The notes below the pieces were generated by a model. It saw nothing but the letters and a program-made list of their open reading frames with translations. It was not told the origin of the DNA and did no database searches. Positions 23,730 to 51,258 of a DNA stretch of 64,000 nucleotides are shown in pieces. The stretch is from the IMG/VR virus record IMGVR_UViG_3300047491_000541. One strand, 5' to 3'. The stretch comes from an uncultured virus (IMG/VR IMGVR_UViG_3300047491_000541). Taxonomy: Duplodnaviria > Heunggongvirae > Uroviricota > Caudoviricetes. Position 1 is the first letter of the stretch. Each line of letters opens with the position of its first letter. Position numbers and translations under genes: made by a program.

Positions 23730-23740
23730 CTACTGTCTCC

Positions 23741-24112
23741 TTATCGGTTTGGATTCAATTGGACTCCGATTTCGCCGGTTGACCAATCGATGACTGCATC
23801 AGGGCCGTGTTTTTCAATAACAGCACAGGTATAAAGTACCCGCCCTTCGGCGTGGAGCTTAGTGCCCTCGGCGTAGAGCGCGTCGCTCTCAGCTCGGAGT
23901 TTGTCACCCTCAGCGCGGCGTTTGTCCCCCTCGGCGCGAAGCTTGTCGTCCTTGACACAGAGCTTGGTACCCTTGGCACGGAGTGCGTCGCCTTCGGCGT
24001 GGAGCTTGTCACCCTCGACACAGCGCTTGAAGCCCTCGGCGCGGAGCTTGTCGCCCTCGGCGCAGCGCTTGTTGCGAATTTCCCACGCATCTTTAATCGT
24101 CTCGTGTTTCAT
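23741..24112 (-). CDS. heptad-repeat array protein 19
   Basis: 123 aa; C-terminus runs into the junction (GEIGVQLNPNR). Confidence 0.8.
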   Translation of the reverse strand: MKHETIKDAWEIRNKRCAEGDKLRAEGFKRCVEGDKLHAEGDALRAKGTKLCVKDDKLRAEGDKRRAEGDKLRAESDALYAEGTKLHAEGRVLYTCAVIEKHGPDAVIDWSTGEIGVQLNPNR

Positions 24113-24140
24113 GGTGTCTCCTTATTGGTTGAGTTCGAGG

Positions 24141-24455
24141 TCACTTGGCTTCGATTTCGCCAGTTGCCCAGTTGATACTAGACTCAGGGCCGTACTTTGC
24201 AAGAACAGCATGACGGTAGAGCCCGTCGCTTATGTCGTGGAGTCTGCAACCTTCTGCGAGGAACTTGTCGCTTCTATCGAGGAATCTGCGACCTTCGGCG
24301 GTGAGCTCGTCGCTTTTGGCGCGGAGTGCGTCGCCTTTGGCGAGGAGCTTGCATCCTTCGACGTAGAGCCTGTCACCTTCAGTGCTATGCCTGTCGCCTT
24401 CAGCGCGGAGCTTGTTGCGTGTTTCCCATGCGTCTTGAATTTGCCCGTGTTTCAT
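24141..24455 (-). CDS. heptad-repeat array protein 20
   Basis: 104 aa, family termini. Confidence 0.85.
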   Translation of the reverse strand: MKHGQIQDAWETRNKLRAEGDRHSTEGDRLYVEGCKLLAKGDALRAKSDELTAEGRRFLDRSDKFLAEGCRLHDISDGLYRHAVLAKYGPESSINWATGEIEAK

Positions 24456-24469
24456 CTACTGTCTCCTTA

Positions 24470-25045
24470 TCAGTTAGTCACTTTGGTTTCGATTTCGCCA
24501 GTTGCCCAGTTGATACTGGATTCAGGGCCGTACTTCGCACAAACAGCATCGCGGTAGAGATTGTCGCATCCGACGAGAAGCCTGTTTCCGTCAGCGAGGA
24601 GTCTGCGACCTTCGGCATGGAGCGTGTCGCTTTTGGCGATAAGCGCGTCGCCCGCAGCGCGGAGCCTGTTACCTTCGGCGAGGAGCTTGTCACCTTCAGT
24701 GCGGAGTCTGCGACCTTCGGCGAAGTACTTGTTGGCTTCATCGATGAACACGTCGCTTTTGGCGCGAAGCGCGTCGCCCGCAGTGCTGAGCCTGTCGCCT
24801 TCGGCGCGGAGTCTGCGACCTTCGCCGTTAAGTTTGCAACCTTCGGCAAGAAGCGCGTCTCCTCTGACGAGGAACTTGTCGCCCTCGGCAATGAGCTTGT
24901 CGCCTTCGGCGCGAAGCCTGTTGCCTTCAGCGTAGTGGTTGTTGCTTTCGACGAGAAGCGCGTCGCCTTCGACGCTGAGCTTGTTGCCTTCGGCGTGTAA
25001 TTCGCTGCGTCTTTCCCATGCGTCTTGAATTTGCCCGTGTTTCAT
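24470..25045 (-). CDS. heptad-repeat array protein 21
   Basis: 191 aa (188 + VTN extension). Confidence 0.85.
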   Translation of the reverse strand: MKHGQIQDAWERRSELHAEGNKLSVEGDALLVESNNHYAEGNRLRAEGDKLIAEGDKFLVRGDALLAEGCKLNGEGRRLRAEGDRLSTAGDALRAKSDVFIDEANKYFAEGRRLRTEGDKLLAEGNRLRAAGDALIAKSDTLHAEGRRLLADGNRLLVGCDNLYRDAVCAKYGPESSINWATGEIETKVTN

Positions 25046-25069
25046 CTACTGTCTCCTTATCAGTTAGAT

Positions 25070-25363
25070 TCACTTGGTTTCGATTTCGCCAGTTGCCCAG
25101 TTGATAACCGCATTAGGGCCATACTTTTCGAGAGCAGCTTTGCGGTAGAGCTTGCTTCCTTCGTCGCGGATCGCGTCGCCTCTGGCAATAAGCCTATCCC
25201 CGTCAGCACGGAGCTCGTCGCTTTTGGCGAGGAGCTCATAGCTTTTGGCGAGGAGCTTGTCGCCTTCGAAGCTGATCTTGTTGCCTTCAACACAGAGCTT
25301 GTTCCCTTTGGCGCGGAGCTTGCTGCGTGCTGCCCATGCTTCTGTGATTGGTCCATGTTTCAT
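25070..25363 (-). CDS. heptad-repeat array protein 22
   Basis: 97 aa from MKHGP. Confidence 0.85.
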   Translation of the reverse strand: MKHGPITEAWAARSKLRAKGNKLCVEGNKISFEGDKLLAKSYELLAKSDELRADGDRLIARGDAIRDEGSKLYRKAALEKYGPNAVINWATGEIETK

Positions 25364-25364
25364 C

Positions 25365-25667
25365 TTATGATACCCTCCCATTAGAACGAGCCGCATCTAC
25401 CTTCTGACGATCACGAAGCCACTGCTCGTGTTCCTCTGCAGCCTTCCGTTTACGCTCCTCAGAGGCCAGCAGAGCCTCACGGTCATACTCTTGCACTGGC
25501 ATTGGAGACCCTACCCGACACGTCCGCCAGTGATCCGCCCAATTCTTCTGACGCATCGTCAAACCACAGGCACACTTGACGACGAGCTCGTCCAAGCGAT
25601 TCTGCTCCAGAACACTCTTTCGATTATCCATAAACAACCCTTTTCTCGGAATCTCCCTCACATCCAT
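25365..25667 (-). CDS. hypothetical protein (CxC..H..C possible Zn site)
   Basis: ORF directly after a promoter motif; KCACG..DHWRTC. Confidence 0.55.
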   Translation of the reverse strand: MDVREIPRKGLFMDNRKSVLEQNRLDELVVKCACGLTMRQKNWADHWRTCRVGSPMPVQEYDREALLASEERKRKAAEEHEQWLRDRQKVDAARSNGRVS

Positions 25668-25693
25668 ACATTACCGGAAATCGGTTAGAATAA
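25668..25693 (-). promoter_or_regulatory. conserved phage promoter-like motif upstream of the heptad array
   Basis: TTATTC-N12-GGTAATGT. Confidence 0.7.
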
Positions 25694-25952
25694 GGAAGAA
25701 ATTTATAGATAGACGAGATTGCGTAACCCGTTGGAACATAACACAATACGACTCAAAACTATGCCGACAGCACAATCTCCTGCCGGATAAGCACCGCCTC
25801 CATCCGACGATGACAGGCTTCAATTTGCTCATCCAGGTTGCCTTTCCGTCTAGCCTCATCCTGCTCGTCCTGTAATCGGAGAATTCGCCTATCGATCCGA
25901 GCGATAATGGCATCAACCTTTTTTTGATCGTTCATATAATACCTCTCAAAAG

Positions 25953-27839: not shown

Positions 27840-27858
27840 ATCATCACTCCCTCGGAAC

Positions 27859-27918
27859 GCCCAACAAGGCGCGCCAGATTATTTCGCTCCACTCAAAATC
27901 TAAGCTTTGTCGTTCTGC
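27859..27918 (+). repeat. attC-like site (60 bp)
   Basis: GCCCAAC AAGGCG..AGATT / AATCT..GCTTTGTC GTTCTGC. Confidence 0.65.
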
Positions 27919-30405: not shown

Positions 30406-30436
30406 TTCCTATTCTCCTGTTGTTGTCCACATACAT

Positions 30437-30462
30437 ACATTACCGAATCACTTCCGGAATAC
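30437..30462 (-). promoter_or_regulatory. conserved phage promoter-like motif
   Basis: GTATTC-N12-GGTAATGT. Confidence 0.65.
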
Positions 30463-30469
30463 GAAAAAA

Positions 30470-31192
30470 TTATGCCATAAATCGACCAGCAAAGTAACCA
30501 ACTTCACGCCCCCAATCACTTCTTACTACCAACATCCTTTGATCCGATTCCATTGTCTCCCGAATGATATAGTAGAGATTGCCTTTTGTAAGTCCTTGAG
30601 CTCCAACGGCATCGATACACTCCACCTTCGGCTCGATCATGATGTCCCCGTCCCGGTCTATAGCAAACCGGAATTCCTCTGGAGATCGCCTCTTGTCTCC
30701 ACCTTCCACAGTGATCCACAAACATTCATCAACGCTTCTGATTTTTTTCCACTCACCATCAGTCTTATCAAGAACCATGACACCAGGATACACATTTGTA
30801 TAATCTAAGATGACGAACACATCGGAACTAATAAACCCCTTGTCCTTGATCGAGAAAAGCAAGCCAGTCTTATTCTCAGTTGTCACAGCTACATTTACCA
30901 CCACGACCACCTGACCGACCATTAGATCAGAAAATGGCTTGGTGACGACCGCATAGACCTCCTCCAAAAACTCGAAGTCCCAACGCTTCACGAAACTCGA
31001 TTCTTCATACCACTCCTCTGTATGGTCCATCAACCGAACCATTACACCAGAGTCATCCTTGACATCGATGAAGGAGCGAAATTTTGAAAAAGTGGAATTT
31101 GAATTACTGGCATCCTCGATTTCCGGCTCGACAAGATATACCTTGCCAGTCGTGAATCGCTCGTCTGTCCCTATGTAACGTGCGAATATCAT
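30470..31192 (-). CDS. hypothetical protein
   Basis: 240-aa ORF. Confidence 0.65.
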   Translation of the reverse strand: MIFARYIGTDERFTTGKVYLVEPEIEDASNSNSTFSKFRSFIDVKDDSGVMVRLMDHTEEWYEESSFVKRWDFEFLEEVYAVVTKPFSDLMVGQVVVVVNVAVTTENKTGLLFSIKDKGFISSDVFVILDYTNVYPGVMVLDKTDGEWKKIRSVDECLWITVEGGDKRRSPEEFRFAIDRDGDIMIEPKVECIDAVGAQGLTKGNLYYIIRETMESDQRMLVVRSDWGREVGYFAGRFMA

Positions 31193-31993: not shown

Positions 31994-34063
31994 CTAAACC
32001 CGAACCTTACCTTCAGTGACGATCCTAGTGAACTCTCGGACAAACCCCGGACCAATCTCATTCACCTTTTCAAGATTTATAAACCACTCTTTGCCGTAAA
32101 ACGCTCTCGGCGATTCAGTCTGAACTCCGAATCCATAAACCTCGATGCCTTCCTTCCGAACTCGCTTACAAACCCTCTTCAAGTTGTCGCACATCTCTTC
32201 GTCATTGCCGTGACCAGCACAAGGCTCTCCGTCAGACAGCGAGAAGATCACCTTCCGCCGCTCAGGACGCTGCTTCAACCGAAACGCCGCATACTCGACA
32301 ACTTCACCGTCGATATTGTGATGGTGACAACCCGTATGAACCATGCGATGACGAACATTAACCCACTTCTCGCTAAAGAGCTTATAGTGATTGTAAACAA
32401 TCGGATTGACACGAGTAAAACCATCCATCTTTGGCATATCTCGTGATCCACTAGCATAAGCCGTCGTGGTTCCGATGATCTCAAACGGAATCCCGATGGA
32501 GTTTAAAGCCTCTCCAATCGCCATAGCCAGAAGTTGCACTTCATAGAAATTGCACATGCTTCCAGATTCATCAATCGTGATAGCGACAGCCACATCCAGT
32601 TTCATCCCGTCACGAGTCCGATAGAAAACATCGCGACTAAGATTCTTCGCAATCGCAACCAGACGTTGATGATCAATTTTACCCTGACGAAGATAAGGGT
32701 TCTTCCTGCACTTACTAAGACTACGAAGAGCCTGTTCCAGAGCACGAGTCATCGAAGTGACCGTCACAGACATCTGCGAGAGCCGTTCCCGATATGAAGT
32801 CTTATCAGATTCAGAAGTTTTCGGAGCCGAATGACGATCTAGGTCTCGACGAGACAAATACTTCTTATCCCCAGAAGGCAGATTCTTGAAGAACTCTTCA
32901 AGGTCCTCATTCTGAGCCTGTTCACGAGAAAGTCCGTCGAACTCGTCTTCCAAGTCCCGATGATCCTTACCGTCTCCCTTGCCGCCCTTCGGCTCATCAT
33001 TCTTCGGCACATAAGGAACATCGCCGCCAGCCTTCATGCTTCCATTGGGCTCGCCATCTCCATCTTCGCCGTTTTCTGAGTCAGGTTTGCTCTTGTTGGA
33101 CTTCCCACCATTCTTGCTTTCTTTACCACCCTTGCTCCCATCAGGTCCATCGTCTTCTGAATCTCCTTCAGAACCTTCGCCATTCTCTCCTTCGCCTTCG
33201 CCGCTATCCCCTTCTCCAGCATCGTCAGCACCCTCACCATCGCCCTTGTCCTTACCCTCATCAGAGTCATCACCCTTGTCGCCGGATTTCTTATCATCAC
33301 CCTTTTCGGGTTTCTGATTCTCGTAGTCATCAAAATCGTTGGAGCCTCCAGACTGAGGTTCGCCTCCCTGCTCTCCCTGCTCTCCCTGCTCTCCCTGCTG
33401 CTTTTTCTGTTCCTGCGGAGGAGGCTGATTCTGCTTCCACTCATCATTCACATCTTTCAGAAGCTTGTAAATGACTTTCGCCAGATCGAGAGCCTCATTG
33501 GCATTCTTGCACTGCTTGACCTTGATGAATTCGGAATGAGCGGCATCAACATAATCCTGAGCCTTGCGACCAAGATGCCACGCAGGTTGAATCCCCTCAA
33601 CCATAAAAGACATCGCACATAATGCTTCCCACAGAGGAGCGTCCTTTCCAGACGACATCTGCTCGGCAATCTTCCGATTATAGTAATGAGTATTCCAGTG
33701 GAAAACGACCGCACAACCCTTGTGCCGAGAAGACTCAACCGCTTCCATCCGACGATCCTCAAGGGCATTCCAAATCTCATGGAGTGCGCCCTTGGGATAA
33801 TCAGCCTTCGTAAGACTCGTCTCGTCAATGTGCCCAGCTTCGTGATAAACCCGACCACGTAGAAGCATCAGAGCTTCCTGAGTGATCCCGGATGCACAAG
33901 CCATACGGGGAATCCGAATGATCCTCTTGTAGATGTCGGCGTCAACGGCGGTCCCATTGTGGTAAACCACCTGAACATTTTTATCCCGCCCAATCCACCG
34001 AGCCAGAACAGACATGGCGTCTTCTGCCTCATGCTCGCCGTAATATGTCGCCGTATCGTTCAT
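31994..34063 (-). CDS. CobT-like vWA-domain protein
   Basis: N-terminal HEAGH..NALED.R.E, long acidic Gly-rich linker, MIDAS DESGSM, RRKVIFSLSDGEP. Confidence 0.85.
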   Translation of the reverse strand: MNDTATYYGEHEAEDAMSVLARWIGRDKNVQVVYHNGTAVDADIYKRIIRIPRMACASGITQEALMLLRGRVYHEAGHIDETSLTKADYPKGALHEIWNALEDRRMEAVESSRHKGCAVVFHWNTHYYNRKIAEQMSSGKDAPLWEALCAMSFMVEGIQPAWHLGRKAQDYVDAAHSEFIKVKQCKNANEALDLAKVIYKLLKDVNDEWKQNQPPPQEQKKQQGEQGEQGEQGGEPQSGGSNDFDDYENQKPEKGDDKKSGDKGDDSDEGKDKGDGEGADDAGEGDSGEGEGENGEGSEGDSEDDGPDGSKGGKESKNGGKSNKSKPDSENGEDGDGEPNGSMKAGGDVPYVPKNDEPKGGKGDGKDHRDLEDEFDGLSREQAQNEDLEEFFKNLPSGDKKYLSRRDLDRHSAPKTSESDKTSYRERLSQMSVTVTSMTRALEQALRSLSKCRKNPYLRQGKIDHQRLVAIAKNLSRDVFYRTRDGMKLDVAVAITIDESGSMCNFYEVQLLAMAIGEALNSIGIPFEIIGTTTAYASGSRDMPKMDGFTRVNPIVYNHYKLFSEKWVNVRHRMVHTGCHHHNIDGEVVEYAAFRLKQRPERRKVIFSLSDGEPCAGHGNDEEMCDNLKRVCKRVRKEGIEVYGFGVQTESPRAFYGKEWFINLEKVNEIGPGFVREFTRIVTEGKVRV

Positions 34064-34069
34064 ACCCAT

Positions 34070-34095
34070 ACATTACCGGAACCAGCCCGGAATAA
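34070..34095 (-). promoter_or_regulatory. conserved phage promoter-like motif
   Basis: TTATTC-N12-GGTAATGT, 6 nt before ATG at 34063. Confidence 0.7.
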
Positions 34096-34136
34096 GATAA
34101 AAAACGACACAATAAATGCAAAATATTCGTCGAGCT

Positions 34137-35816
34137 TTAAGATGCTCTATTGCATGGACTTATAGACACCAAACCCTTGTTTCCAGACTGCTTGAACTTA
34201 GCAACGAACTTGACGATCTCAGGAGTCACACGACCCTTCTGATTCACCGCCATCACCATCGACAACTTCAACAGATTCTTGATGTCACGACCAGAGAGGT
34301 TAGGCATCATCTTAACGATCCTCACGATCTCCGCACCCGTCAGCCCAACCACATTCTGTTCCGACATCACCTTCCACATCCGAACTTGATCACTCTCGCT
34401 CGGCATCTCGTAGGTAAACCGAGCCGTAGTCCGACTGATGATCGCATCATCCGTGAGCGTCCCACGGTTCGTTGTCATGAAAAGAACACCCTTGTAATAT
34501 TCCAATACGCGCAGGAAGACGCCCACGATGGCATTCTGCCGAATGTCATCGCCCCTTTCACGGATATAGACATCAGCCTCATCGAGTAGTAGAATAGCAC
34601 CCCATCTCTCCGCCCTCTTAAGCACTTCCTTGAGTTGTTCCTCGACCTTCTCCGCCGTAATTCCCAACTGGCTCGACTGCACTTTGTAGAGCGGGCGATG
34701 CATCTTTTCGCTGTAAACCTCTGCGGTCAAGGTCTTCCCAATACCAGGGGAACCTTCGATCAGAACGATTGTTCCGCCCTCCTTGCCGCCAACGATATCC
34801 GCGAACTTAGTCTTCGAGTGCTCAATGAGCACGGCCAGGAAATCCTTCACGTCCGTCGGAAGAATGAGTTTCTGATCTACCGTATCGTCATAGACATACG
34901 GCTCGGCGTTATTCACATGCACCCGATAATCAGCGTGCTCGTCCAGATCGAACATCTCATACACAGGATGAATAGGCAGCTTCCACACCTTCTCCTCGTT
35001 CTTGTCCCAATACGGCGAATGAATCGCATCCGCATCACGTTCACGATCAGGAGGATCCATCACCATCTTGGCAGGACGACCAGCCTGACCAACAGGACGG
35101 AAACTATTATTATACCAGCCCGCAATAAGTTTCGCCTTGCCTACCACAGACATCTGAAATCCGTCCACATCGCAATGCGCAAGATACCGCTTGACTTCCT
35201 TCTGGTATGATTCCATACGAGCTGGCGTCTCAAGATAGAAACCCTTGCCGGCTAGAATCTCACTCATCTTCTTTTGGCGAATATCCTCTACTTCAATTTG
35301 AATCGTCTTCCCCTCAGTGTTAGAGGATCCGCGAGACCCACGAAGCTTCCGTTTGTTCTCTCCCGTATTGATGCCGACCAATTCGATTGTTACAACCGCA
35401 GGTCCCATTTCCGTAGCTGTGAAATATTTGATCTCATTCACAAACCAAGGGACAAATTGACCATCCTGAGTCTGCTCAAAAAGATAGTGGTTTTGAGAAG
35501 CCTCAACAAACTTTCTCATGGCAGGCTCGACATGTTCCAGCCTGGAAACAACCGATCCATCCGGATTATCCTTGATCTCCATCCACTGCTGAACAACATT
35601 CTGGCTCAGCTTAGCTGACCGATCACCAGAGTCCGCCTTCTTTCCGAGATACTCATGAAACCTCTTGATGCTCGCATCAGACCAATCGGCAATGGAAATT
35701 TTCATCTTACCTTTGCCCGTGCTAAGGTTATACTTAGTCCCCAATACATCGACTTCATCAGCCGTCATGAGTCCTTTGATCTCATCAAACCACTCTTCAT
35801 TAACAATGACTCTCAT
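34137..35816 (-). CDS. AAA family ATPase
   Basis: GSPGIGKT, LLLDEAD, FLRVLEYYKGVLFMTTNR, LSGRDIKN. Confidence 0.9.
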   Translation of the reverse strand: MRVIVNEEWFDEIKGLMTADEVDVLGTKYNLSTGKGKMKISIADWSDASIKRFHEYLGKKADSGDRSAKLSQNVVQQWMEIKDNPDGSVVSRLEHVEPAMRKFVEASQNHYLFEQTQDGQFVPWFVNEIKYFTATEMGPAVVTIELVGINTGENKRKLRGSRGSSNTEGKTIQIEVEDIRQKKMSEILAGKGFYLETPARMESYQKEVKRYLAHCDVDGFQMSVVGKAKLIAGWYNNSFRPVGQAGRPAKMVMDPPDRERDADAIHSPYWDKNEEKVWKLPIHPVYEMFDLDEHADYRVHVNNAEPYVYDDTVDQKLILPTDVKDFLAVLIEHSKTKFADIVGGKEGGTIVLIEGSPGIGKTLTAEVYSEKMHRPLYKVQSSQLGITAEKVEEQLKEVLKRAERWGAILLLDEADVYIRERGDDIRQNAIVGVFLRVLEYYKGVLFMTTNRGTLTDDAIISRTTARFTYEMPSESDQVRMWKVMSEQNVVGLTGAEIVRIVKMMPNLSGRDIKNLLKLSMVMAVNQKGRVTPEIVKFVAKFKQSGNKGLVSISPCNRAS

Positions 35817-35870: not shown

Positions 35871-36317
35871 TTATTCCAACATAGTCCGTAACCGCATCAG
35901 ACGGCTACAGAACTCGTCACTGGTCAGGATCGTTACTTTGGGACTAGCCTTGCCTATGGAATGAGTTAGGACGGCATCTCCAGTCGCCCTAAGAGCCCTC
36001 CTGAAACTCTCGCTCTGATCGAACATCTCGCGATAGGCTAGATCGAGAAGCCTCTGATATTCGTCCGAGTCCCTATTGAAGACCTCTCCCTGCCAAAAGA
36101 GTTGCCTTGTCACCCACCACTTTTCACCTCTTCCAAAGACCTTGGCATTCCATCCAGTCAGAGCACAAACATGCTGCTGTGTTTCTTTATTCGAGAATTT
36201 TAGACTCTGCAACCAGCCTTCAAAAGACCGACACTCAACCCCATCAAACACAAAAGGATGAGACGCAAAATTGCTCAACGCACTGGCTGGATATTCATTT
36301 TTTGAGCCGATGTCCAT
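35871..36317 (-). CDS. T4 gp30.3-like / NADAR-family protein
   Basis: ALSNFASHPFVFDG..SFEGWLQSLKF..LFWQG..FRRALRATG..LTHSIG..TILT.DEFC. Confidence 0.7.
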   Translation of the reverse strand: MDIGSKNEYPASALSNFASHPFVFDGVECRSFEGWLQSLKFSNKETQQHVCALTGWNAKVFGRGEKWWVTRQLFWQGEVFNRDSDEYQRLLDLAYREMFDQSESFRRALRATGDAVLTHSIGKASPKVTILTSDEFCSRLMRLRTMLE

Positions 36318-36664
36318 CTTACATCACGTTATTGTCTCATACCGGGCTGTACGGTGTATACTCTTTACACGTTCGCGTTGCCGTTCTTCCTTTCATGCAA
36401 GACCGCTGATCCATACATGTGATGAATGAATGAGCGCAGTCGTCGCATGTTGCGGCCTTCATGGCTACATGGCCGCATGTAAGACACCGAACACATTTGC
36501 TGGGTCTATTCGTCACTCGCTGGCGTTCGTTATTCAATCCTCACCTCCATCGTTGTGCTTGCACTTGTGAAAGCGTGCCTTGAGCCGTGCGAAGCGTGGC
36601 GCGAACGTGCGCCCACAGTTGAAGCAGATCGCTGCGCCCGGGTGCCGGATGCGCTCGACAATAG

Positions 36665-36765
36665 GACTAACCATGCGCCGGACCGTACCGGCAATAGTCA
36701 CAAACCGTTTCTTCATAGTCTCAACTTTCTCCTGCTTTTGCTGGCCGGTCAGCTTGTCGTTCGGT
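36665..36765 (+). repeat. attC-like site (101 bp) with a gene start in its loop
   Basis: GACTAAC..GCCGGACC / GGTCAGC TTGTC GTTCGGT; loop holds RBS and ATG of MKKRFVTIAG. Confidence 0.65.
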
Positions 36766-37738
36766 ATCACACGCTCCGTTGTGGGTGTGCCGTCGAAGAA
36801 ACACAGATTGCGCTGTGCTTCATCCAGCGTTGGGAAAGAATCACAACACGCCGCTCCTACCCATGAATTGATCCACGCATCAACCCACCACCAGTGCACC
36901 AGCCAGTGCCGTTGCTGGATCACGTATTCCTTACGCCCGTCATGCATTGTCCGTTCAACGATTCTTGCCTTCATGTCGTCTCTCCTTTCGAGGACGCGCC
37001 AATAACCGCGTCCTTAGTTGCAATAAATGGCTCATTATTTCTCTTCGCCATCTTTTAGTCTCACCATTATACCCAGACGATGGTTCTGGACATCTCCCAC
37101 TTCCGCGCTATCCATCCAGCGTGAAAGTCTGTTGTCGTCGTCTCTGTTCCCGTGTTCCATCCATCCAAACAAAGACAGAGAGTGGACGGAAGAGACAAAC
37201 TGTGTTTCCATCACACCTTCTGTACTTTCACAATACAAAAACCGCTTGCTCATTTTTCACCTTCTTTTGATTGGACATCCCGCCAGTAGCAAAACTGGTC
37301 GCCAGGAACGTATTCAAACACTCCAAAGTCAGGTTGTCCCTCCGGGATTTGATTGCCGAGGCACCAATCCCGCCACCCGTTATCGACCCTCAATGAGATA
37401 ATGCTGTGTCCAGTCGTCGCGGTGCGACTTGTCCCAATTCCCAATGCCATCATCGTCCTTCTCCTTGTGTTACGGAACGCCCAGCATACTTTGCTTCGCG
37501 TCGATATAAAGCTGAGCTTGATAGTTGGGCGGCAACGTAGTACGTGCAACCTCAAACGCCGGATGGTCTACAGGGCAACGCGGATGCGTAGTGTCCACGA
37601 TCCGTGCAAGCACACGCTCAAGGGTGCGTATCCGCATATTGGCGGCTCCAAGCATCGTATCCGCATCGCCCCGGGCTTCTTCACAAGCTGACTCATATTC
37701 TTTATAGTTCATTTGTCTTTCTCCTTGTGTTGCGGAAC

Positions 37739-37797
37739 TCCCAACAAGGCGCTCCAGTTGACTTCACTTCGTTCGCGACTGAGCTTTGCCGTTCGGC
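37739..37797 (+). repeat. attC-like site (59 bp)
   Basis: TCCCAAC AAGGCG CTCCAG..CTGAG CTTTGCC GTTCGGC; extra C in L''; R'' matches GTTGGGC at 37524. Confidence 0.85.
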
Positions 37798-37951
37798 GCA
37801 TGTGTCCTGTCAGATGCATAAAGGTGCTCCGCTTGGCATTTACGGCATTCCAACAGGTTGAGCGTGACCGATCCTTCCTTCGAGTTGTCCGCCTTCAACA
37901 CGTCGAAACGGCGACTACCAAGCGTAACCCACTCGTGGTGGCAGAAGGCAC

Positions 37952-38052
37952 GCCGAACCAAGGCTCGCAGCGCACCCAAAACCCGCGCAATAGTTGTTCT
38001 CATATTCGGTCCTTCTCAGCGGTTTTTGGGCTGCTGAAGCCCATCGTTGGCC
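37952..38052 (+). repeat. attC-like site (101 bp)
   Basis: R'' GCCGAAC exactly complements GTTCGGC at 37791; CCCAAAA/TTTTGGG inner arms; R' GTTGGCC. Confidence 0.8.
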
Positions 38053-38397
38053 TTCGCTAGTACCTGTGCTATGTCTGACTCGACCAGCGTTGTCGGGTCG
38101 TCATTGTCACGCCTATAGGCGATCTCGTCGGCGGCGCGGGATAACAAGTCCAAGAAGTCGTCCAAGCGTACGGCTTCGCTGCCACTCGACTTCACGTTGT
38201 CGAGCGTCTCCTCGTTCCCAAACTGCGCATCGGGGTTTGACGGACGAACATCCTGCACCAAATTGCGGATGTCACGCATAGCCTCCATCGGCAGATCGAA
38301 TGCCGGCTCAATCAGTTCGTAATCAGGGACGTATCCGCGTTTGGCGTTGATGTTCCACAGCCGTATGGTCGCGAGCACGATATTCTGTTCTCTGTCG

Positions 38398-38595
38398 CTA
38401 AGGTTTTTCATCGTCTTCTCCTTCCAGGAAAGCGGCCCACTTTGCTTGCCGCTGAGCTTCTTCGACGGCTTCTTCATACCGTCGCTGTCTGAAATCAGGC
38501 AGCAAAGGAGCCAAGTCACCGTATTCGTCACAAAAATGTTCCCACTCAGCATCAACCTCCGAGCCGTGTTCTGAAAACCATTCGTCAAAAGTCAT
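38398..38595 (-). CDS. small acidic hypothetical protein
   Basis: MTFDEWFSEHGSEVDAEW after GGAGG; paralog at 47.9-48.0 kb. Confidence 0.6.
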   Translation of the reverse strand: MTFDEWFSEHGSEVDAEWEHFCDEYGDLAPLLPDFRQRRYEEAVEEAQRQAKWAAFLEGEDDEKP

Positions 38596-38754
38596 ACTAA
38601 CCTCCATCAAACGGTTAGAGCGTATTCGCTACGCTCTCCGCTCATCCTTGTCGTTGGCCTTCGCTAGTACCTGTTCTATGTCTGACTCGATACCCGTTAC
38701 CGGGTCGTCATTGTCACGCCTATAGGCGATCTCGTCGGCGGCGCGGGATAACAA

Positions 38755-38806
38755 GTCCAACAAGTCGTCCGAGCGTACGGCTTCGCCGCTCAACTTCACG
38801 TTCGGC
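38755..38806 (+). repeat. attC-like site (52 bp)
   Basis: GTCCAAC..GAGCG / CGCTC..GTTCGGC; degenerate copy at 38148-38202. Confidence 0.7.
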
Positions 38807-39037
38807 GGTACATGGCACACCACCGACTTTTCATCGAGTCTGCGTGCCAGATACTCTATGCGGTCGTATGTCCAGGCATAGCCATAACACCACAGCCACA
38901 GTCCGTCATGCAGGTGAATGAGCCGCGATCCGTCTCCGTTTCGCACCACACTTCCTGGCGGGAGTTGTGCCACGTTTGCGGCAGTTACTCGCTGCCCCGG
39001 TTCAGTTGTGCCCATCAGTCCAGTCCCAGCACGAAAC

Positions 39038-39135
39038 GCCGAACAAGGCGCTGCTGCCAACATGGTGTGGAGACTCGCTTTACTTTGCATTTGGAGTCCT
39101 TTCCTCCCCGCCACACGGCGGGGCTTTGTCGGCCG
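39038..39135 (+). repeat. attC-like site (degenerate R'), paralog of 47111
   Basis: R'' GCCGAAC complements GTTCGGC at 38800; aaggcgctgctgccaacat..ctttgcatttggagtcctttcc shared with 47111-47205. Confidence 0.65.
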
Positions 39136-39597
39136 GCAGAAAGTACCGATACTTTGCCAACGCTTCGCCTTCCGGCACATATCCGACCCTCCGCCCACGA
39201 ACAAGTTCACGAAGTGGCGTGATGAACTCAGTCGTGTACGGATACGACCCGTTCGCAAACGACGGTATGACGTTTTGCGGCCCGATTGCCGCATAAAAAG
39301 ACTCCATGTCTACTTCTACAAATGCGGTCATCGAACTACCTCATCTTTGTCGTTTGGTCCATATAGATTTCCTGAAGCTTCCCAGCATCCCAAATCTTGT
39401 GAAGTGTCCACATAACTCAGCTCCCTTTCCGTTTCTTCACTACAATCCGGTATCGCTCCGGGACACTCTCCGGCGATGCCAATCCCGTCCGCTGCACGTA
39501 TCGGTAAATTCGTTCGGCATGGGCGTGTCCACGCTTCTTCCGCTGTCTAGCACTTGCGTCTTTCACGATTTTACCGTGGAGCCTCCCTATCAGACCA

Positions 39598-39984
39598 TTA
39601 GACCAGCTCTGCGACGAGCTTGGTCGTGATCTTGCCAGCGCAGATCGTGGTCGTGGTCGCCTTGATCGCCGCAATGGCCTCTGCCGCCTTCGCCTTCAGG
39701 CCATCAACGAGGGCCTCGTCCGCCGTCACAGCCTCACGAACTAGGGCGTCCACCGTGACGCCATTGAGCTTCGAGAGAGCCGCAGCCAACAGGAGCCACG
39801 GGTCCGCCTTCGCCACGATTGCCGACTCGTAGTCATCGCCCTTCTTGAGCGAACCCGTGATCTTGACCGTGAAAGACACAGGATACTCACCGGCTTTCAC
39901 ATTCGCCCCGGCTGCCTTCATCGCCGTATCCTTGATGACCTTCGCCAGAGCAACCACTTCCACGCTTTCCATTGCCTTACTCAT
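39598..39984 (-). CDS. Ala/Lys-rich hypothetical protein
   Basis: ORF from MSKAMES downstream of a promoter motif. Confidence 0.7.
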   Translation of the reverse strand: MSKAMESVEVVALAKVIKDTAMKAAGANVKAGEYPVSFTVKITGSLKKGDDYESAIVAKADPWLLLAAALSKLNGVTVDALVREAVTADEALVDGLKAKAAEAIAAIKATTTTICAGKITTKLVAELV

Positions 39985-40028
39985 AACCGTCTCTCTCTTG
40001 TTGTTTGACTTAATCCCCTTACACCCAT

Positions 40029-40054
40029 ACATTACCGGAATCCAGTCAGAATAA
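40029..40054 (-). promoter_or_regulatory. conserved phage promoter-like motif
   Basis: TTATTC-N12-GGTAATGT. Confidence 0.7.
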
Positions 40055-40127
40055 GGAATAAAAATGAAAAATCGGCAGCCCATCAAAGCCTCCGAACTTA
40101 TTCACCATCAAGCACTTACGTCATTCA

Positions 40128-40610
40128 TCAGACGGAATCAGCCACATTGAGCGATATTCCTCTCATAAGAGATGGTTTTCGACGAGCTGGTTTTCGTTCT
40201 CCGACGGCAAACCGGATTTCATATATCCGTCTTGGATCGAGCCGTTTGATCGTATCTGAAACAGTCTCCCGGAATTGCTCTTGTCGCATCTCCTTGAACA
40301 GCCTCTCGTCCCCAATGTCTTGTTTGCCTCTCCCAACATCGCCATAAACGAAGATGAACTCGTGAGCATTTTCTCGAACTAGAGTCGGCTCCTTGAACTT
40401 GAAAGCCTTTCCATTGATCGTCAAAATCAGTTCACCAGCAAAGACATCTCGATACACTTCATCTATATAACCAGAAACTTTCTTTCCTGTCTCCGCATGA
40501 ATGAATGATACCATCCGATGAAGCATTCTATAAACAACATACCGATCACTTCGTGATGAATGCGATGTTTTGAATAAGCCTGCAGGTATTTCCAATTCAG
40601 GTTCCTTCAT
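40128..40610 (-). CDS. hypothetical protein
   Basis: 160 aa, AAGGA RBS. Confidence 0.65.
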   Translation of the reverse strand: MKEPELEIPAGLFKTSHSSRSDRYVVYRMLHRMVSFIHAETGKKVSGYIDEVYRDVFAGELILTINGKAFKFKEPTLVRENAHEFIFVYGDVGRGKQDIGDERLFKEMRQEQFRETVSDTIKRLDPRRIYEIRFAVGERKPARRKPSLMRGISLNVADSV

Positions 40611-40689
40611 ATCTAATTCCTTTCTTCCGTATAAATAGCACGATACTGAATCGCCGTCAAGCCCCGACCCTAGAGATGTTTACAGGAAA

Positions 40690-41667
40690 TCAATCTGAAC
40701 AAGCTCTCTGCATCCGCTTCAGATACTCCGCCAGCCCCTCCCGCCACGGCATGGGCGCAGTGCCGAGCAGCGCGGTGATCTTGTCCTTGGACAGGACCGA
40801 ATAGGCGGGGCGCCGCGCCCGCGTGGGATAGGCCGCCGTGTCGCACGGCTCGATGCGGCAGGTGCCCGGAACCATGCCCAGCCGCCGTCCCTCCCCGGCG
40901 ATGGCCGAGGCAAATTCATACCAGGTTGTTTCGCCGCCGTCGGTGACATGGTAGATGCCGGAAGCATCGGGAAAGCGGGTGATGAGCGCCAGGATCACGG
41001 CGCAGAGCGAGGTGACGCGGGTAGGCGTGCCAAACTGGTCTGCGACCACCTGGATGCGTTCCCGCTCACGCATCAGGCGCAGCATCGTATGGACGAAGTT
41101 GCCGCCGTGGCGCCCGTAGAGCCATGCGGTGCGCAGAATGATCGCGCCGGGACAAGCCTCCAGAACCAGTCGCTCGCCGTCCGCCTTGGTCTGCGCATAG
41201 ACGCCGATTGGGCAGACGAGATCATCCTCGACGTACGGACGGCGCCCTGTACCGTCAAAGACATAGTCCGTCGAGAGGTGGATCAGCCGCGCGCCGCAGG
41301 CGGTTGCGATCATCGCGCAATTGGCCGCGCCTTGAGCATTCAGCCGACGCGCCTGATCGGAATCATCCTCCGCCCGGTCGACCGCCGTGTAGGCGGCCGC
41401 GTTCACGACCCAGTCAATCCGCCGTCCCGCCGCAAACGCCCGCAGCGCCGACGCATCGCCGATATCGCATTCGCGATCCGTCCCCACGCAGGGCCGCCCG
41501 GCGGCGGCCAGCGTCTCGGTCAGCTCGCGCCCCAGCATCCCTAGGCAGCCGACCACCCACACCGCCGCCGGTTTGGCACGCGCTTCCGCGATGGATGCCG
41601 CACGGCGGCGCTTTACAAGGTCTTGCATCATGTCTATCAGTGTCATTTGTTCCTCCATGCCAGACAC
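40690..41667 (-). CDS. rfbD: dTDP-4-dehydrorhamnose reductase with foreign N-terminal extension
   Basis: GCLGMLG, NAAAYTAVD, HLSTDYVFDG, YAQTK, LRTAWLYG, VADQFGTPT, RRPAYSVL. Confidence 0.93.
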   Translation of the reverse strand: MSGMEEQMTLIDMMQDLVKRRRAASIAEARAKPAAVWVVGCLGMLGRELTETLAAAGRPCVGTDRECDIGDASALRAFAAGRRIDWVVNAAAYTAVDRAEDDSDQARRLNAQGAANCAMIATACGARLIHLSTDYVFDGTGRRPYVEDDLVCPIGVYAQTKADGERLVLEACPGAIILRTAWLYGRHGGNFVHTMLRLMRERERIQVVADQFGTPTRVTSLCAVILALITRFPDASGIYHVTDGGETTWYEFASAIAGEGRRLGMVPGTCRIEPCDTAAYPTRARRPAYSVLSKDKITALLGTAPMPWREGLAEYLKRMQRACSD

Positions 41668-42479: not shown

Positions 42480-43103
42480 TCATTGCTCAAAAAAGTCCTG
42501 ATAGGCCGTGCGACACGCCGTGCAGCCACACTCGCCTTTGCATGGGTCATTGCACTTTGCTGTGCACGTACACGGGATTCCGTCATACGGGTCAAAGATG
42601 CGCGAACCAGCGCCTCCACATGTATTCGCCTTGTTGGCAGGACAATCGGTGCCGGATGATTTGCAGTCGTCATGCGTGCGTTCCATAATGGTTTCGATTT
42701 CACCAGTTTCCCGGTTGATACTGGAGTCGGGTCCGTACTTCTCACAAACAGCATCGCGGTAGAGCGCGTCACCCTTGGCAATGAGCTTGTAGCCTTTGGC
42801 GCGGAGCGCGTCACCTTTGGCAAGGAGATTGCGACCTTTGGCGAGGAGCTTGTAGCCTTTAGCAATGAGCCCGTAGCCTCTGGCGTAGAGCCTGTTTTCG
42901 CCAGCACGGAGTCCTTGACCTTCGGCATGGAGATTGTCGCTTTTGGCAAGGTGCTTGTCGCCTTCAGCGCGGAGCTTGTTGCCTTCGGTAATGAGCTTGA
43001 CGCTTTCATAGAGGGGCCTGTCTCCTTCGACGATGAGCTTATTGCCCTCAGCGCGAAGCTTGTTGCGTGCTTCCCATGCGTCTTGAATCGGTTCGTGTTT
43101 CAT
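42480..43103 (-). CDS. orphan heptad-repeat family protein fused to a Cys-rich C-terminal module
   Basis: MKHEPIQDAW..GEIET, then CTCTAKCNDPCKGECGCTAC. Confidence 0.75.
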   Translation of the reverse strand: MKHEPIQDAWEARNKLRAEGNKLIVEGDRPLYESVKLITEGNKLRAEGDKHLAKSDNLHAEGQGLRAGENRLYARGYGLIAKGYKLLAKGRNLLAKGDALRAKGYKLIAKGDALYRDAVCEKYGPDSSINRETGEIETIMERTHDDCKSSGTDCPANKANTCGGAGSRIFDPYDGIPCTCTAKCNDPCKGECGCTACRTAYQDFFEQ

Positions 43104-46130: not shown

Positions 46131-46275
46131 GGCGCACAAGGCGGCTCATCCCTACGACTGGCCTGTTCCTTGGTCGTGCTATCGTTCTTCTTCATGGTCG
46201 TGTTATCGGTCTTCTTCATGGTCATTCCTCCTTTTGTTATTTCCGGCCAGCCGAGGCTGACCGATGGCGTTACCC
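46131..46275 (+). repeat. long attC-like site, family ending GGCCAGCCGAGGCTGACC
   Basis: CCCTACGACTGGCC / GGCCAGCCGAGG arms; related ends at 50155, 50899, 51226. Confidence 0.55.
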
Positions 46276-46639: not shown

Positions 46640-47163
46640 CTAAAGATCACCACCGCGCTTGCGAACGGCGCACAGTTGTTTGGTGCGTGTCGCCCATCGG
46701 CCACTGAAGGCGTCACTGGGCGGATGGATTTGCCGCCGGTCGTTTGGAATTTTAGTCGTCCGCGCACAAATCGGATTTCGCCTTTGATGGCATATTCATG
46801 CCACCATACTGAATCCGTCCGCGCTGGCACAAGGCACACCACAGTCGCGCCGTATTGGCTTTCCATGTAGGCTTTCTCCACCCACGCACGTATGACTTTC
46901 GCGCAGCGCGGTCCGCTGGTATATGGCGGATTAAGCCACACTGTTTCACCCGTCCACGATTGTTTCAGGCCGTCATCCTCCACCGTGTAGTGCTTAACGC
47001 ACTTGGCATTTTCGTGAGTGCTCGCAGCATCGAGCGTGAATCGAAACTCGGCGTTGAGCTTGTCGAAGAAGTCCTGCGGAGTGGCCCATTCTGATGTGGA
47101 CGCGCTAAACGCCGAACAAGGCGCTGCTGCCAACATAGTGTTGAGATTCAGCTCACTTTGCAT
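46600..47163 (-). CDS. phage-type DNA N6-adenine methyltransferase
   Basis: EWATPQDFFDKLNAEF.FTLDAA, DDGLKQSW, WLNPPY, LVPARTD..WW, GRLKF, APFAS; start MQSEL inside an attC loop. Confidence 0.88.
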   Translation of the reverse strand: MQSELNLNTMLAAAPCSAFSASTSEWATPQDFFDKLNAEFRFTLDAASTHENAKCVKHYTVEDDGLKQSWTGETVWLNPPYTSGPRCAKVIRAWVEKAYMESQYGATVVCLVPARTDSVWWHEYAIKGEIRFVRGRLKFQTTGGKSIRPVTPSVADGRHAPNNCAPFASAVVIFRPNARGQTPSEER

Positions 47164-47205
47164 TTGGAGTCCTTTCCGCCCCGCCGCAGAGCTTGGTCGT
47201 TGGCC
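47111..47205 (+). repeat. attC-like site (95 bp)
   Basis: GCCGAAC..GCTGCTGC / GCAGAGC TTGGTC GTTGGCC. Confidence 0.75.
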
Positions 47206-47817
47206 GGAAGAAGATGGAGCTCGAACAGGTTGTAGCATGGATGGCACTTTCCGATTTCGTCGGTGCATAGCCACCGCTGGTCGCCAATGTGCTTCGTCAG
47301 CGTGACGCGGAGGCGAGAACTGACAACGAATGCCTCGCGTCCAACAAGGCAATCGAGAGGTACGGCAACCCGCCGCCGGGGTTTCTTCTCTTGCATCACA
47401 GTCCTTTCTTGGCTGGTTGCCCATCACCGCTGGCGTTGGGCGAGGGAGGATTGCGCCTCCCCGCCGCGCGTGTTACAGCTCAATGCGCGATAACAGGTTC
47501 TCCATGCTCACGCGAAGCTGTTCGTTTACCCGTTCAGTAAGGCGTTCGATCTCTTCAGCCATTGGGGCCATCTGTTGTCGCGGTGCCGTGGGCTTCGCTT
47601 CGCACGGCGTGGTGTTTGGCCGCAGGACCATACAAATCCGCTGTTCGAGTTCGATGTAGACATCTTCCAAGTGCGCTATGGCATTCTCCAGCCTCACCAT
47701 TTGCTCCGTAATTTGCGGCTTCTGCTCTTCTACCGCAGCTCTGATTGTGCATCTCGATTCCATCTTCGTTCTCCCTGTCCCCCCGTGTTTTGTTGTTGCT
47801 GGTCGGACTGGGGAAAC

Positions 47818-47877
47818 GCCCAATCAGCAAATACAACCTATCTCGCTCCGCTCGAAGTTTGATTTATCACGTCGGCC
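47818..47877 (+). repeat. attC-like site (60 bp, degenerate cores)
   Basis: GCCCAAT..AAATACAA / TTGATTT..GTCGGCC; GCTCGAAGTTTGATTT shared with 42298 and 50511. Confidence 0.6.
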
Positions 47878-47920
47878 TTGACGCATATTGGGATGTTGGC
47901 TTCATTGTACCGCTGCATCT

Positions 47921-48026
47921 TGAAGTCAGACAGCAAAGGAGCCAAGTCACCGTATTCGTCTCAAATACGTTCCCACTCAGCATCGACCTCTGAACCATGT
48001 TCTGAAATCCATTCGTCGTAAGTCAT
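47921..48026 (-). pseudogene. decayed paralog of 38398-38595
   Basis: MTYDEWISEHGSEVDAEWERI*DEYGDLAPLL, TGA at 47961-47963. Confidence 0.65.
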
Positions 48027-48258
48027 AATAATTTCCAATCATCCTTGTTGTTCGATGTATCGGCTTTCGCAGCCTCGATTTCCTTTGCCGCACGGTGTCC
48101 AGCCATACGGCACTTGCCGGCGAGCCGCATCATCCCGCGTACAGTTTCGGTCAGAGCCATCCGGCAATCGAGGCAGACGGTGATTCCCTCGCTGCCGTTG
48201 CAGTACAGGGCAAGGTGCTTGGCGTCGACTGCAAGGCAGTCCTGCCAACAAATAGAAC

Positions 48259-48318
48259 ATTGAACAAAGTTATTCATGCTACCTCCCTCCTCTCGGAGCA
48301 TGACGCTCCGTGTTCTGC
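48259..48318 (+). repeat. attC-like site (60 bp)
   Basis: ATTGAAC..TTCATGCT / AGCATGA..GTTCTGC; ATG of MNNFVQC in the arm, GGAGG in the loop. Confidence 0.65.
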
Positions 48319-48635
48319 GGATGCTTCACGGCCTTGACGCTTATCGGGATGTTCGCCTTACGAATCACAACCTCGATGCGCGACTTACCAACGGGATTTG
48401 CCGAATGGCATCGAGTTCCGTCTTTCGGCCATACGCCATGCGCTTCCATCCAACACACAACCTTGTACCCGGTATCATCGCCTCCGAGGTCGTGATCCAG
48501 GCTGCACTCTACGACGTGCCCCTGTTCCAGAACGGAAATGGCTTCCGCGCTCGTCCTGGCAACAGTCCATCCGTAGAGCCCAAACCGTTCAGGATCGCGT
48601 TGATCGTCGACGAAAAGGCGAATAAGAGGATTCAT
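48279..48635 (-). CDS. cyclic-phosphate-processing receiver-like domain protein
   Basis: LFVDDQR..ART..EAI..SLDHDLG..TGY..HSANPVG. Confidence 0.75.
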   Translation of the reverse strand: MNPLIRLFVDDQRDPERFGLYGWTVARTSAEAISVLEQGHVVECSLDHDLGGDDTGYKVVCWMEAHGVWPKDGTRCHSANPVGKSRIEVVIRKANIPISVKAVKHPQNTERHAPRGGR

Positions 48636-48675
48636 GCTACGTCCTTTAGGCCGAGCATGATGCTCGGCGTTCGGC
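48617..48675 (+). repeat. attC-like site (59 bp)
   Basis: GGCGAAT..TTCATGCT / AGCATGA TGCTCGGC GTTCGGC; paralog of 48259. Confidence 0.65.
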
Positions 48676-48754
48676 GGATGCTTCACGGCGCCGTTGATCG
48701 TCTTGTCATTGTCCATCGTTTCCTCCCGGCGCGGATTCATCCGCGCCTGACTTG

Positions 48755-49804: not shown

Positions 49805-50478
49805 ACCCGCTTCCGTTCCGCCTGCGTCAGCGTCTTAGTCTTTCCCCTGCCCATGCGCCCCAGTGATTGCGCGGCCTTATTCACAGACATGGGATAACCT
49901 CCGCTTCACCGTCCAAGACCCACCGGCAAACCGTCCCGGTTTGCTCGGTCGCACCCTTTGCCAACCTTGCGCGGTGCACCTCGGTGTATGAGGTGCCCGG
50001 CATTCTGCACATCGGCAAGCCTCCGTCGCCGAACCAAAACTTTCCGCGCCCGTTGCCACGCACGATCTCCCGTCCGTTCCCGCCAACCATTGTCCATGCC
50101 TGCACGCTACGGGTGTCCCGCGACGACTTCTTGGTTGTTTTCATGTTTCATTTCGGGCCAGCCGAGGCTGACCGTTGGCGTGACTGGCATCCCGCTGTCG
50201 GAGCATACCGTTGAGGCAGAAGTTGAACACCGCCAGCAGCTCGTCCGGCTTTGCCGGTCGCCCCCACGCGGCGACGTACTGCTCGTCAATGTTACGCAGT
50301 ACCGGCCCCATCAGGTCGGCTGGGCCGTCCCCGTTGTACATCTCGTCCTCGGCATCACGCCCCGGCACCGCGTTCACCAGTTGCGGATTCGTCGGACACT
50401 TATGCGAGCAGTCAATCTGCCCGCGCTCTACGCTGTCGATTTTCCACCAGCCCATGACTCGTCTCCTTTTAATGCGCA

Positions 50479-50538: not shown

Positions 50539-51106
50539 TTATGGATTTCCTCGTATAGCAGCCCCGTCAGACGCATGATCCTTAAAGCGCGCGGCAAGTC
50601 GAACGGTGGAAGACTGTGAGCGTATGCCAGAATTGGAGCGCACACCGGGCACGCCTTCACTTGGCCGATGGTGGCAGAACAATGCGGTTCAGCCCTACGA
50701 CTGGCCCGCGCCTTGGTTATGCTTGCGGTCTTCTTCATGGTCTATCCCCCCTTGGTGTCTCCTTTCGATGAAAAAAGCCTAACACCCAGCTTTAGCCGTC
50801 GCCTGAAGCCTCGCCCGATCTGGGGCGTTCTGCGACAGCATCCACGCAACGGTTGTGCTAACGGTCTTCTTGGTCTTCTTGGTCTTCTTGGTCTTCTTGG
50901 CCAGCCGAGGCTGTCCGCTGGCGTTCGCCGTACATGCTTTCTGTGGACCAGCGTGGCAATGGTGGCAGAAGCCATATCCGCACCTGACGCACACTGGTCC
51001 GTTGTGGAAATCGCTCCCTTCGTAAGCTAAGATGTCCAGCGTTCCGTCTTTGTTGCACTTCCATACGTGACCACGAGCACCCCGTTTCGTTTCATAGGAA
51101 CGAAGC

Positions 51107-51258
51107 GGCGAAGAAGGCGATACAACCCTGCGGCTGGTCCTCGCTTCGGTTGTGCTAACGGTCTTCTTGGTCTTCTTCTTGGTCTTCTTCATGGTCTTCT
51201 TCATGGTCTGTCATCCTTTGTTATTCCGGCCAGCCGAGGCTGACCGATGGCGTTCCCA
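51107..51258 (+). repeat. long attC-like site with KKT microsatellite in the loop
   Basis: R'' GGCGAAG vs upstream GTTCGCC (50923); ggtcttct(t) repeats. Confidence 0.5.

Follow-up and report, generated by a model that had tools for sequence, protein, structure and literature searches.

How does one unit of about 150 bp come to form the 3′ end of two otherwise unrelated genes? This question is raised by a DNA stretch of 64,000 nucleotides (nt), hereafter the window, from the IMG/VR record IMGVR_UViG_3300047491_000541 of an uncultured virus (Caudoviricetes), in which two near-identical copies of such a unit lie 607 bp apart. The reading strand of the repeat is the minus strand, on which nearly all of the long open reading frames (ORFs) of the window are also found. 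We consider it likely that the repeat codes for a small autonomous C-terminal protein module, which has been recombined onto unrelated accessory genes of a freshwater phage, probably one of the jumbo type. At least five unrelated N-terminal parts, here called heads, carry the module in frame as their C-terminal end; a sixth such joint is present in population contigs, and heads exist without the module.

The extent of the unit can be stated closely. A repeat search of the window paired positions 38044-38182 with 38651-38789 (139 nt, 93% identity), and blastn within the window lengthened this pair to 38044-38198 and 38651-38802 (155 columns, 91.0% identity, E 2.8e-57), in which one 3-nt indel is the only gap difference. 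The two copies mismatch at 10 of the 139 positions besides this codon indel, which makes copy B one codon shorter than copy A, and a core of 60 nt at 38094-38153 (corresponding to 38701-38760) is identical between them. No other repeat longer than 100 nt in the window has a higher identity; the next best, D18 and D20, reach 83% and 87%. When the copies were aligned pairwise with 60-80 nt of flank on each side, the likeness broke off sharply at both edges, and no homology extended well past them. The near-identical pair that the original prediction had placed at 38047-38196 and 38654-38800 is real, and the measured edges lie at most 3 nt away.

Both copies sit in frame at the C-terminal side of a gene, and the unit has neither a start nor a stop codon of its own. 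Copy A (38044-38198, minus strand) supplies the last ~52 codons of gene A, from N-V-K to A-N-D, and is followed by a private tail of 8 residues; copy B (38651-38802, minus strand) supplies the last ~51 codons of gene B and is followed by a different private tail of 6 residues. A hidden Markov model (HMM) of the module matched the two copies with E values of 3.6e-36 and 2.3e-35, respectively. Across 1,619 six-frame peptides from the window and from L001, an IMG/VR locus that carries an A-type head, the same model detected these two copies alone (next match, E 0.34), and a profile search found no copy of the module in six related or candidate loci. The claim that the unit lacks a start codon and is read in frame as the C-terminal module of two otherwise unrelated proteins is borne out, because BLASTP aligns only 52 residues of proteins A and B, all of them C-terminal and 44 of them identical (E 2e-25), and the remainder of the two proteins cannot be aligned. 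The ORFs first quoted for the two proteins (38016-38588 and 38629-39294) are maximal ORFs that overrun the upstream genes, and the likely genes run from 38411 to 38016 and from 39090 to 38629.

Gene A (38016-38411, minus strand) encodes 131 amino acids (aa) followed by TGA. Its ATG at 38411 stands after GGAGAAG and overlaps the end of an upstream gene of 65 aa, and this start is backed by the relatives P0004-P0008, which begin at the same Met. Residues 1-57 (38241-38411, minus strand) form the head of A, which is predicted to be helical and belongs to a family of stand-alone proteins of ~75 aa. Gene B (38629-39090, minus strand) encodes 153 aa followed by TAG, and its ATG at 39090 overlaps the stop codon of an upstream gene of 83 aa (ATGCAAAGTAA). 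Conservation in the B family already sets in upstream of the internal Met chosen for P0009 by a gene caller. The head of B covers about residues 21-95 (38806-39030, minus strand) and is predicted to be beta-rich; it has 51 relatives, whose sequences stop soon after a C-H-x-P motif.

The two heads are separate families, and each of them is mostly free of the module. A search with protein A returned 12 proteins at E ≤ 0.001 among 19 candidates: A, B, eight proteins with the A head and no module, and two module bearers with other N-termini (P0010 and P0013). Six of the eight module-free proteins are stand-alone proteins of 74-80 aa; of the other two, P0003 (88 aa) was called too long, and P0012 has the head at the C-terminal end. 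The A-type head in L001 bears a different, unrelated tail. For B, a search with residues 1-100 gave 52 matches among 138 candidates, namely B and its 51 relatives, none of which (0/51) was matched by the module HMM. The tail that follows C-H-x-P in these relatives has a median length of 9 residues, and other tails of at least 30 residues occur in 6 of 49 relatives, with 2 of the 51 excluded because the pattern used found no C-H-x-P in them. Four IMG/VR loci of the B family stop 0-12 residues past this motif. Relatives of both head domains are carried by IMG/VR viral contigs, and no synteny of neighbouring genes was found across L001-L005. A scan of viral contigs with protein B gave three confirmed stretches but no locus.

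These families bear on whether A and B could be old tandem paralogues whose N-terminal halves have diverged past recognition. The two genes adjoin in direct orientation and are of similar size, as such a history would leave them. However, AlphaFold2 predicts different folds for the two heads, three helices for A (mean pLDDT, the predicted local distance difference test score, 65; alignment of 10) and a beta-rich domain for B (pLDDT 94-98; alignment of 52). Each head has a module-free family of its own, and the module is found on four further heads. We regard descent from a common tandem ancestor as very unlikely.

The further heads were found by profile searches and in population contigs. Among 7,999 scored candidates, the module profile matched five of the longer proteins at E ≤ 0.01: A, B, P0010 (134 aa), P0013 (114 aa) and P0017 (216 aa). 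With the module removed, the N-terminal parts of these five bearers gave no match in any of the ten possible pairs at BLASTP E < 0.1. None of the three foreign N-termini, those of P0010, P0013 and P0017, has a relative in the window, and none matched Pfam or PADLOC. The module is thus present in different domain architectures, with five unrelated N-termini and one in-frame joint in the population contigs. Whether the module recurs with other N-termini had been put forward as a check of the original prediction, and the three further proteins from the profile searches and the one in-frame joint show that it does.

Searches at the level of DNA and of translated contigs added no further bearer. 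The DNA of 37700-39400 had no match in 50,697 phage records, and tblastn of the module against the same records gave none at E ≤ 1. Scans of metagenome contigs returned 329 pattern stretches with the module profile and 302 with protein A, none of which was confirmed, and a scan of viral contigs with the module profile returned 67 stretches, again with none confirmed. Neither the module profile nor the B-family profile matched the 86.6-kb record behind L001, which is a fragment rated 22% complete. The sole match of the module pattern in a genome contig, L006 at 2950-3507 from a metagenome-assembled genome of the Terriglobia, is a false positive that lies antisense to a real gene of 200 aa.

The sixth partner comes from the natural population. 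The stretch occurs in runs of freshwater and lake metagenomes. Population contigs were taken from three DNA runs, X1-X3, which belong to two studies; two of the runs come from one sample, and one run may be of the sample from which the window itself was derived. The three runs contain 90-94% of the sampled words of the stretch, and nothing of it was present in the one RNA run checked. In contigs placed on the window at 85% likeness, a homologue (~87% identical) of the gene of 67 aa at 37250-37453 (minus strand) runs into 11 other letters, behind which comes the module from D-D-L-L-D-L-L onward. Runs X2 and X3 show this joint, 38769 (equivalent to 38162) to 37270, with 45 nt past it, and X1 shows it with fewer. 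The reading frame is kept because one letter of the broken codon and the 11 inserted letters together make four codons. The first 11 residues of the module are absent from this copy, and the breakpoint is therefore not fixed.

Other variants in the same contigs affect the module and the A head. A CGC insertion behind 38783 converts S-G-E to S-G-G-E, which is the form found in P0013 and P0017, and a TCC insertion behind 38339 adds one codon where P0004 has an additional Gly. A joint from 38414 to 37720 fuses the start of gene A to a 32-nt cassette carrying a ribosome-binding site (RBS), and other contigs run from the A head into L001-like or other sequence. Over 38242-38643, where the A head and the 65-aa gene lie, contigs are 3-6 times deeper than over the flanks, so several genotypes appear to share these pieces. 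Among the joints listed, none removes the 607 bp that separate the copies; this says little, because contigs drop rare variants. As a separate observation, the whole of 36500-40500 is hypervariable in X1-X3, with 3 joints and 18 loose ends listed and 131 more loose ends.

The same runs also bear on the suspicion that an assembler placed one repeat twice. Short-read contigs do end inside the module. However, three DNA runs from two studies contain the stretch to the extent given above, and listed contigs lead across three of the four junctions of the module into unique flanks (records 5, 13 and 21; records 8 and 24; record 22). Moreover, the two copies differ at 10 of 139 positions and by a codon. 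An assembly artefact is accordingly hard to credit at all.

The original prediction had read the unit as a mini-cassette bounded by GTT and closed by an attC site. In full, this reading makes it a promoterless integron cassette between attC recombination points (G|TT), duplicated through insertion mediated by IntI. The plus strand does carry GTT at both edges, and the small ORFs all have the same orientation; a one-orientation array of short ORFs with a recurring unit of ~150 bp is indeed what an integron cassette array looks like. Read on the coding strand, the GTT of each edge is AAC, a codon for Asn; the module starts with N-V-K and ends with A-N-D, and both edges carry AACG. The edges taken for a recombination core are Asn codons inside ORFs, and they stand in a phage region of accessory genes. 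Rather than between ORFs, the unit is found within genes, where it is translated and has 6-8 more codons and a stop behind it. Integrase families were found in none of the 128 minus-strand ORFs of the window searched in PHROGs, and in none of the 96 longest of these ORFs, which were searched in Pfam. No RYYYAAC/GTTRRRY pairs 45-150 nt apart occur on either strand of 36,000-41,000; such inverse-core/core pairs are present elsewhere in the window, two per strand. Copy A contains no inverted repeat of at least 8 nt, copy B contains three short ones of 8-11 nt, and folding does not exceed that of shuffled sequences (RNA z -1.07; DNA z -0.17 to -1.02 for both copies and both strands). Rfam recognized no family in the whole window. 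From the 64 kb searched, we conclude that no integron, attC or transposon machinery is involved, and an integron origin of the duplication is extremely improbable. Of the proposal that a cassette had been duplicated as a form of domain shuffling through attC, the shuffling is the right idea, because the module also occurs with other N-termini; the mini-cassette, the attC sites and the integron are not upheld, given the missing integrases, the missing core pairs and the lack of a stable fold.

A mobile unit that needs no integron is a more serious rival. The repeat may be selfish DNA, a small element comparable to a Rickettsia palindromic element or to a miniature inverted-repeat transposable element, which entered the 3′ ends of genes and was tolerated when it happened to be translated. 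Rickettsia palindromic elements are palindromic, are present in many copies per genome, and are inserted internally and in frame in protein genes. The unit resembles them in that a repeat of ~100-150 bp is translated as an extra segment of unrelated proteins. Its size, its 93% nucleotide identity in unrelated genes, the AACG at both edges, the absence of a stop codon of its own and the differing tails behind the copies are all compatible with such an element, as is the ratio of nonsynonymous to synonymous rates (dN/dS) between the copies, 0.88. However, the unit has no terminal inverted repeats, no palindrome and no stable fold; only two copies are present in 64 kb, and the six related or candidate loci have none. 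It is always C-terminal and always in one frame, and its indels comprise whole codons. The residues conserved over five proteins follow a helical amphipathic pattern with conservative swaps, as in a helical peptide, and the copy on the sixth partner begins 11 residues later, so that there is no fixed end of an element. Selfish DNA thus appears quite unlikely.

The preferred reading, a protein module recombined onto unrelated heads, asks for constraint at the level of the protein. Four module proteins share 33 invariant columns, and across the five bearers the hydrophobic positions show conservative swaps (F/L and I/V) within the amphipathic pattern of helices. These columns with their conservative swaps, together with the whole-codon indels in the population, would speak for protein-level constraint, as judged from the aligned residues. 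Several observations weigh against the reading. The local copies differ by 3 synonymous and 9 non-synonymous changes, and the resulting dN/dS of 0.88 by itself shows no constraint on the protein; these changes are too few, and too affected by conversion, to choose between protein and DNA constraint. Purifying selection across lineages was judged from protein patterns only, those of P0010, P0013 and P0017. The module is rare, with 5 proteins in a database of 5.8 billion clusters, and a module search of a representative library returned only B and three long repeat proteins. The sixth partner is known from short-read contigs placed at 85% likeness, which reach no more than 45 nt past the joint, and the module has a pLDDT of 61-84 in both structural models, which for this part rest on a single sequence. 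As for the three long repeat proteins of the representative library, they were judged spurious, because a single helix was matched many times.

In both AlphaFold2 models, the module is predicted to consist of a flexible linker and, behind it, an acidic hairpin of two helices and ~45 residues. The helices lie at residues 81-103 and 111-125 in model A, behind a linker with a pLDDT below 50, and at residues 107-126 and 134-152 in model B, behind a low-confidence linker and the beta domain. The charge is strongly unbalanced, with 12-13 Asp and Glu against 6 Lys and Arg. The module has no family in Pfam (E ≤ 10), PHROGs or PADLOC, and its best PDB sequence match has an E value of 0.29. Fold searches with model B gave a best E of 0.079 with Foldseek against the PDB and of 0.0018 against BFVD, the latter to uncharacterised phage proteins; the VIA wide fold search gave a best Z of 5.0, with all matches on the helical tail and not above the background of helical hairpins. 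By these comparisons of sequence, the module would be an undescribed domain family without a match in Pfam, PHROGs, PADLOC or the PDB. An atlas lead to DUF1380 (score 0.85, below the bar) was not borne out by Pfam at E ≤ 10.

The five bearers also suggest how the two local copies have evolved. At three sites of residues 4-15 (S/L, a codon indel and F/L), A groups with P0010, and B groups with P0013 and P0017, whereas at four or more sites of residues 28-38 A and B stand together against the other three bearers. This mosaic and the 60 identical nt fit two old subtypes whose centres may have been homogenised in this genome by gene conversion, and the identical core is taken as the conversion tract. 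Exchange of sequence between two copies lying this close together, through gene conversion, would explain why the central 60 nt are identical and the first 15 residues belong to two older subtypes. As for the origin of the joints, the module may have been transferred to the 3′ ends of genes when phages co-infected a cell or replicated, through recombination that was illegitimate or used short homologies, and the in-frame products would have been retained because the module was useful. The process itself is known phage mosaicism; it is the domain family that is undescribed.

What the module might be useful for can be suggested only tentatively. It is possible, at less than even odds, that it serves as a shared handle that docks different heads onto one partner, or that oligomerises via a helical bundle, because a hairpin that is flexibly tethered and has a broad hydrophobic face cannot bury this face by itself. 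Docking and dimerisation hairpins such as those of the DEBS polyketide synthase (1pzq) and of the rabies virus P protein (8fuq) are likewise terminal two-helix hairpins on a flexible linker. The module part of model B compares with them at Z 4.5-4.8, where values below 8 are common for any helical hairpin. These hairpins have no sequence relation to the module and may serve only as a lead to how it works.

A bolder proposal is that the module is a transferable address tag of jumbo-type phages, which would load its bearers into the capsid or act as a propeptide cut by the prohead protease, instead of docking or oligomerising. The hairpin would then deliver effectors to a shared destination, and a small-x-Glu motif would let a phage protease free the head. 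Each of the five proteins carries such a motif (G-S-E, S-G-E or G-G-E) at the start of the module, with A-V-R behind it, and the flexible linker of the models would part the module from the heads. The prohead proteases of giant phages cleave after Glu at A/S-x-E motifs (PMC5694885). However, the known capsid-targeting propeptides of T4 and phiKZ-like phages are N-terminal (PMC5694885), the window contains neither head genes nor a protease, and three-residue motifs are expected by chance. An address tag is unlikely. If the proposal were true, the destination might be the assembling capsid, for co-injection, or a compartment or machine built by the phage, and new cargo would be recruited simply by recombining a tail of 150 bp onto a gene.

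Among the systems already described, the closest case is the modular shuffling of T4-type phages mediated by PeSL cassettes. Comeau et al. reportedly treated PeSL cassettes in T4-type phages in 2014. According to Arbiol et al. (2010, PMC2839356), the hyperplastic regions of these phages are shuffled through PeSL cassettes, and small, non-essential ORFs without a known function and of one orientation are inserted, deleted and replaced at short conserved sequences. The window shows a comparable picture, with a repeated 47-nt promoter-like motif and a repeated RBS cassette, in which one of the population joints lies. The difference is that the PeSL element is an intergenic promoter/terminator cassette (PMC2839356), whereas the conserved sequence here is coding and lies inside an ORF; exchange therefore yields chimeric proteins rather than swaps of whole genes. 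Neither copy contains a promoter-like or terminator-like site, and the four sites of each kind in 36,000-41,000 are no more than are found in shuffled sequences.

The surroundings of A and B are mosaic as well, with a shared junction cassette, a duplicated gene of 65 aa and a repeated RBS cassette. The 5′ junction cassette of gene B (39034-39141, minus strand) spans the final 11 codons of the gene before B, the RBS and 19 codons from the start of gene B, and it is 83-87% identical to the 5′ end of a Dam-like methyltransferase gene at 47107-47212. The gene of 65 aa between B and A (38398-38595, minus strand) lies outside the repeat and has a second copy at 47898-48037. Over 47830-48037 (minus strand), this second copy is 83% identical to 38467-38606, and an in-frame TGA takes the place of the Cys codon (TGT) of the first copy; the duplicate is probably in decay. 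The 32-nt RBS/intergenic cassette (…GTTCCG-AACACAAGGAGAA…) occurs twice, at 37455-37486 and 37715-37746, and a related 20-mer is present at 27853-27872 and 39032-39051. Small genes at 46136-46271, 50140-50182, 50679-50925 and 51112-51254 have common Lys-rich N-termini (M-K-K-T…), and their upstream motif would encode G-Q-P-R-L-A in another frame; they represent a further recurring 5′ module family.

Genes B and A would share one transcription unit behind the nearest upstream copy of the 47-nt motif, at 40016-40062 (minus strand). The motif has eight minus-strand copies in the window (5-51, 5186-5232, 13763-13809, 25655-25701, 30424-30470, 34057-34103, 40016-40062 and 54439-54485), each of which overlaps a gene start or lies immediately upstream of one. 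Its layout is a T-run, CCTTATTC, ~10 variable nt and CGGTAATGTATGG. The fit to the sigma-70 consensus is poor, and the motif looks like a phage-specific promoter or leader.

The wider window looks like a phage accessory region, as far as its gene content can tell. It contains a gene for an NAD-dependent DNA ligase, a T4 gp30.3-like gene, two DNA methyltransferase genes, sugar-nucleotide enzymes and many orphan small genes, in addition to a CobT-like gene and an adjoining AAA+ gene matching a PHROG annotated as 'porphyrin biosynthesis'. No genes for virion heads or tails were found in the 64 kb. Proteins of PBS1 and AR9, two jumbo phages of Bacillus, share 39% identity with the AAA ATPase encoded at 34140-35816. 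Furthermore, one IMG/VR contig with a head-domain relative is 86.6 kb long at a rated completeness of 22%, which points to a very large genome. The source lineage is probably a freshwater phage of the jumbo type.

Other features of the window are recorded here in their own right. On the minus strand, ~23 paralogous genes, mostly in tandem, occupy 15300-25400 and 42483-43103. Both ends of their products are constant, with M-K-H-G-P-I-Q-D-A-W-E at the N-terminus and T-G-E-I-E-T-K closing the C-terminus; between them is a variable number of 7-residue repeats (A-E-G-x-K-L-x; 21-nt period), and Pfam gave only weak matches of the coiled-coil type. The AT skew is unusual, -0.3, over 16-24 kb. A protein of 153 aa encoded at 48282-48740 (minus strand) matches the Pfam family cREC_REC, a cyclic-phosphate processing receiver domain, with E 2.5e-24, which is unusual cargo for a phage.

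The case of this locus carries a caution: when a phage contig contains a one-way array of short ORFs in which units recur, the array can be taken in error for integron cassettes. A tail common to unrelated orphan proteins would also offer a practical handle for finding their common partner. For the biology of large phages, the module would be a natural example of how they build small proteins, in which a tail of 50 residues has been pasted in frame onto at least five or six unrelated heads, and the shuffling of this module is still visible as variants in lake populations.

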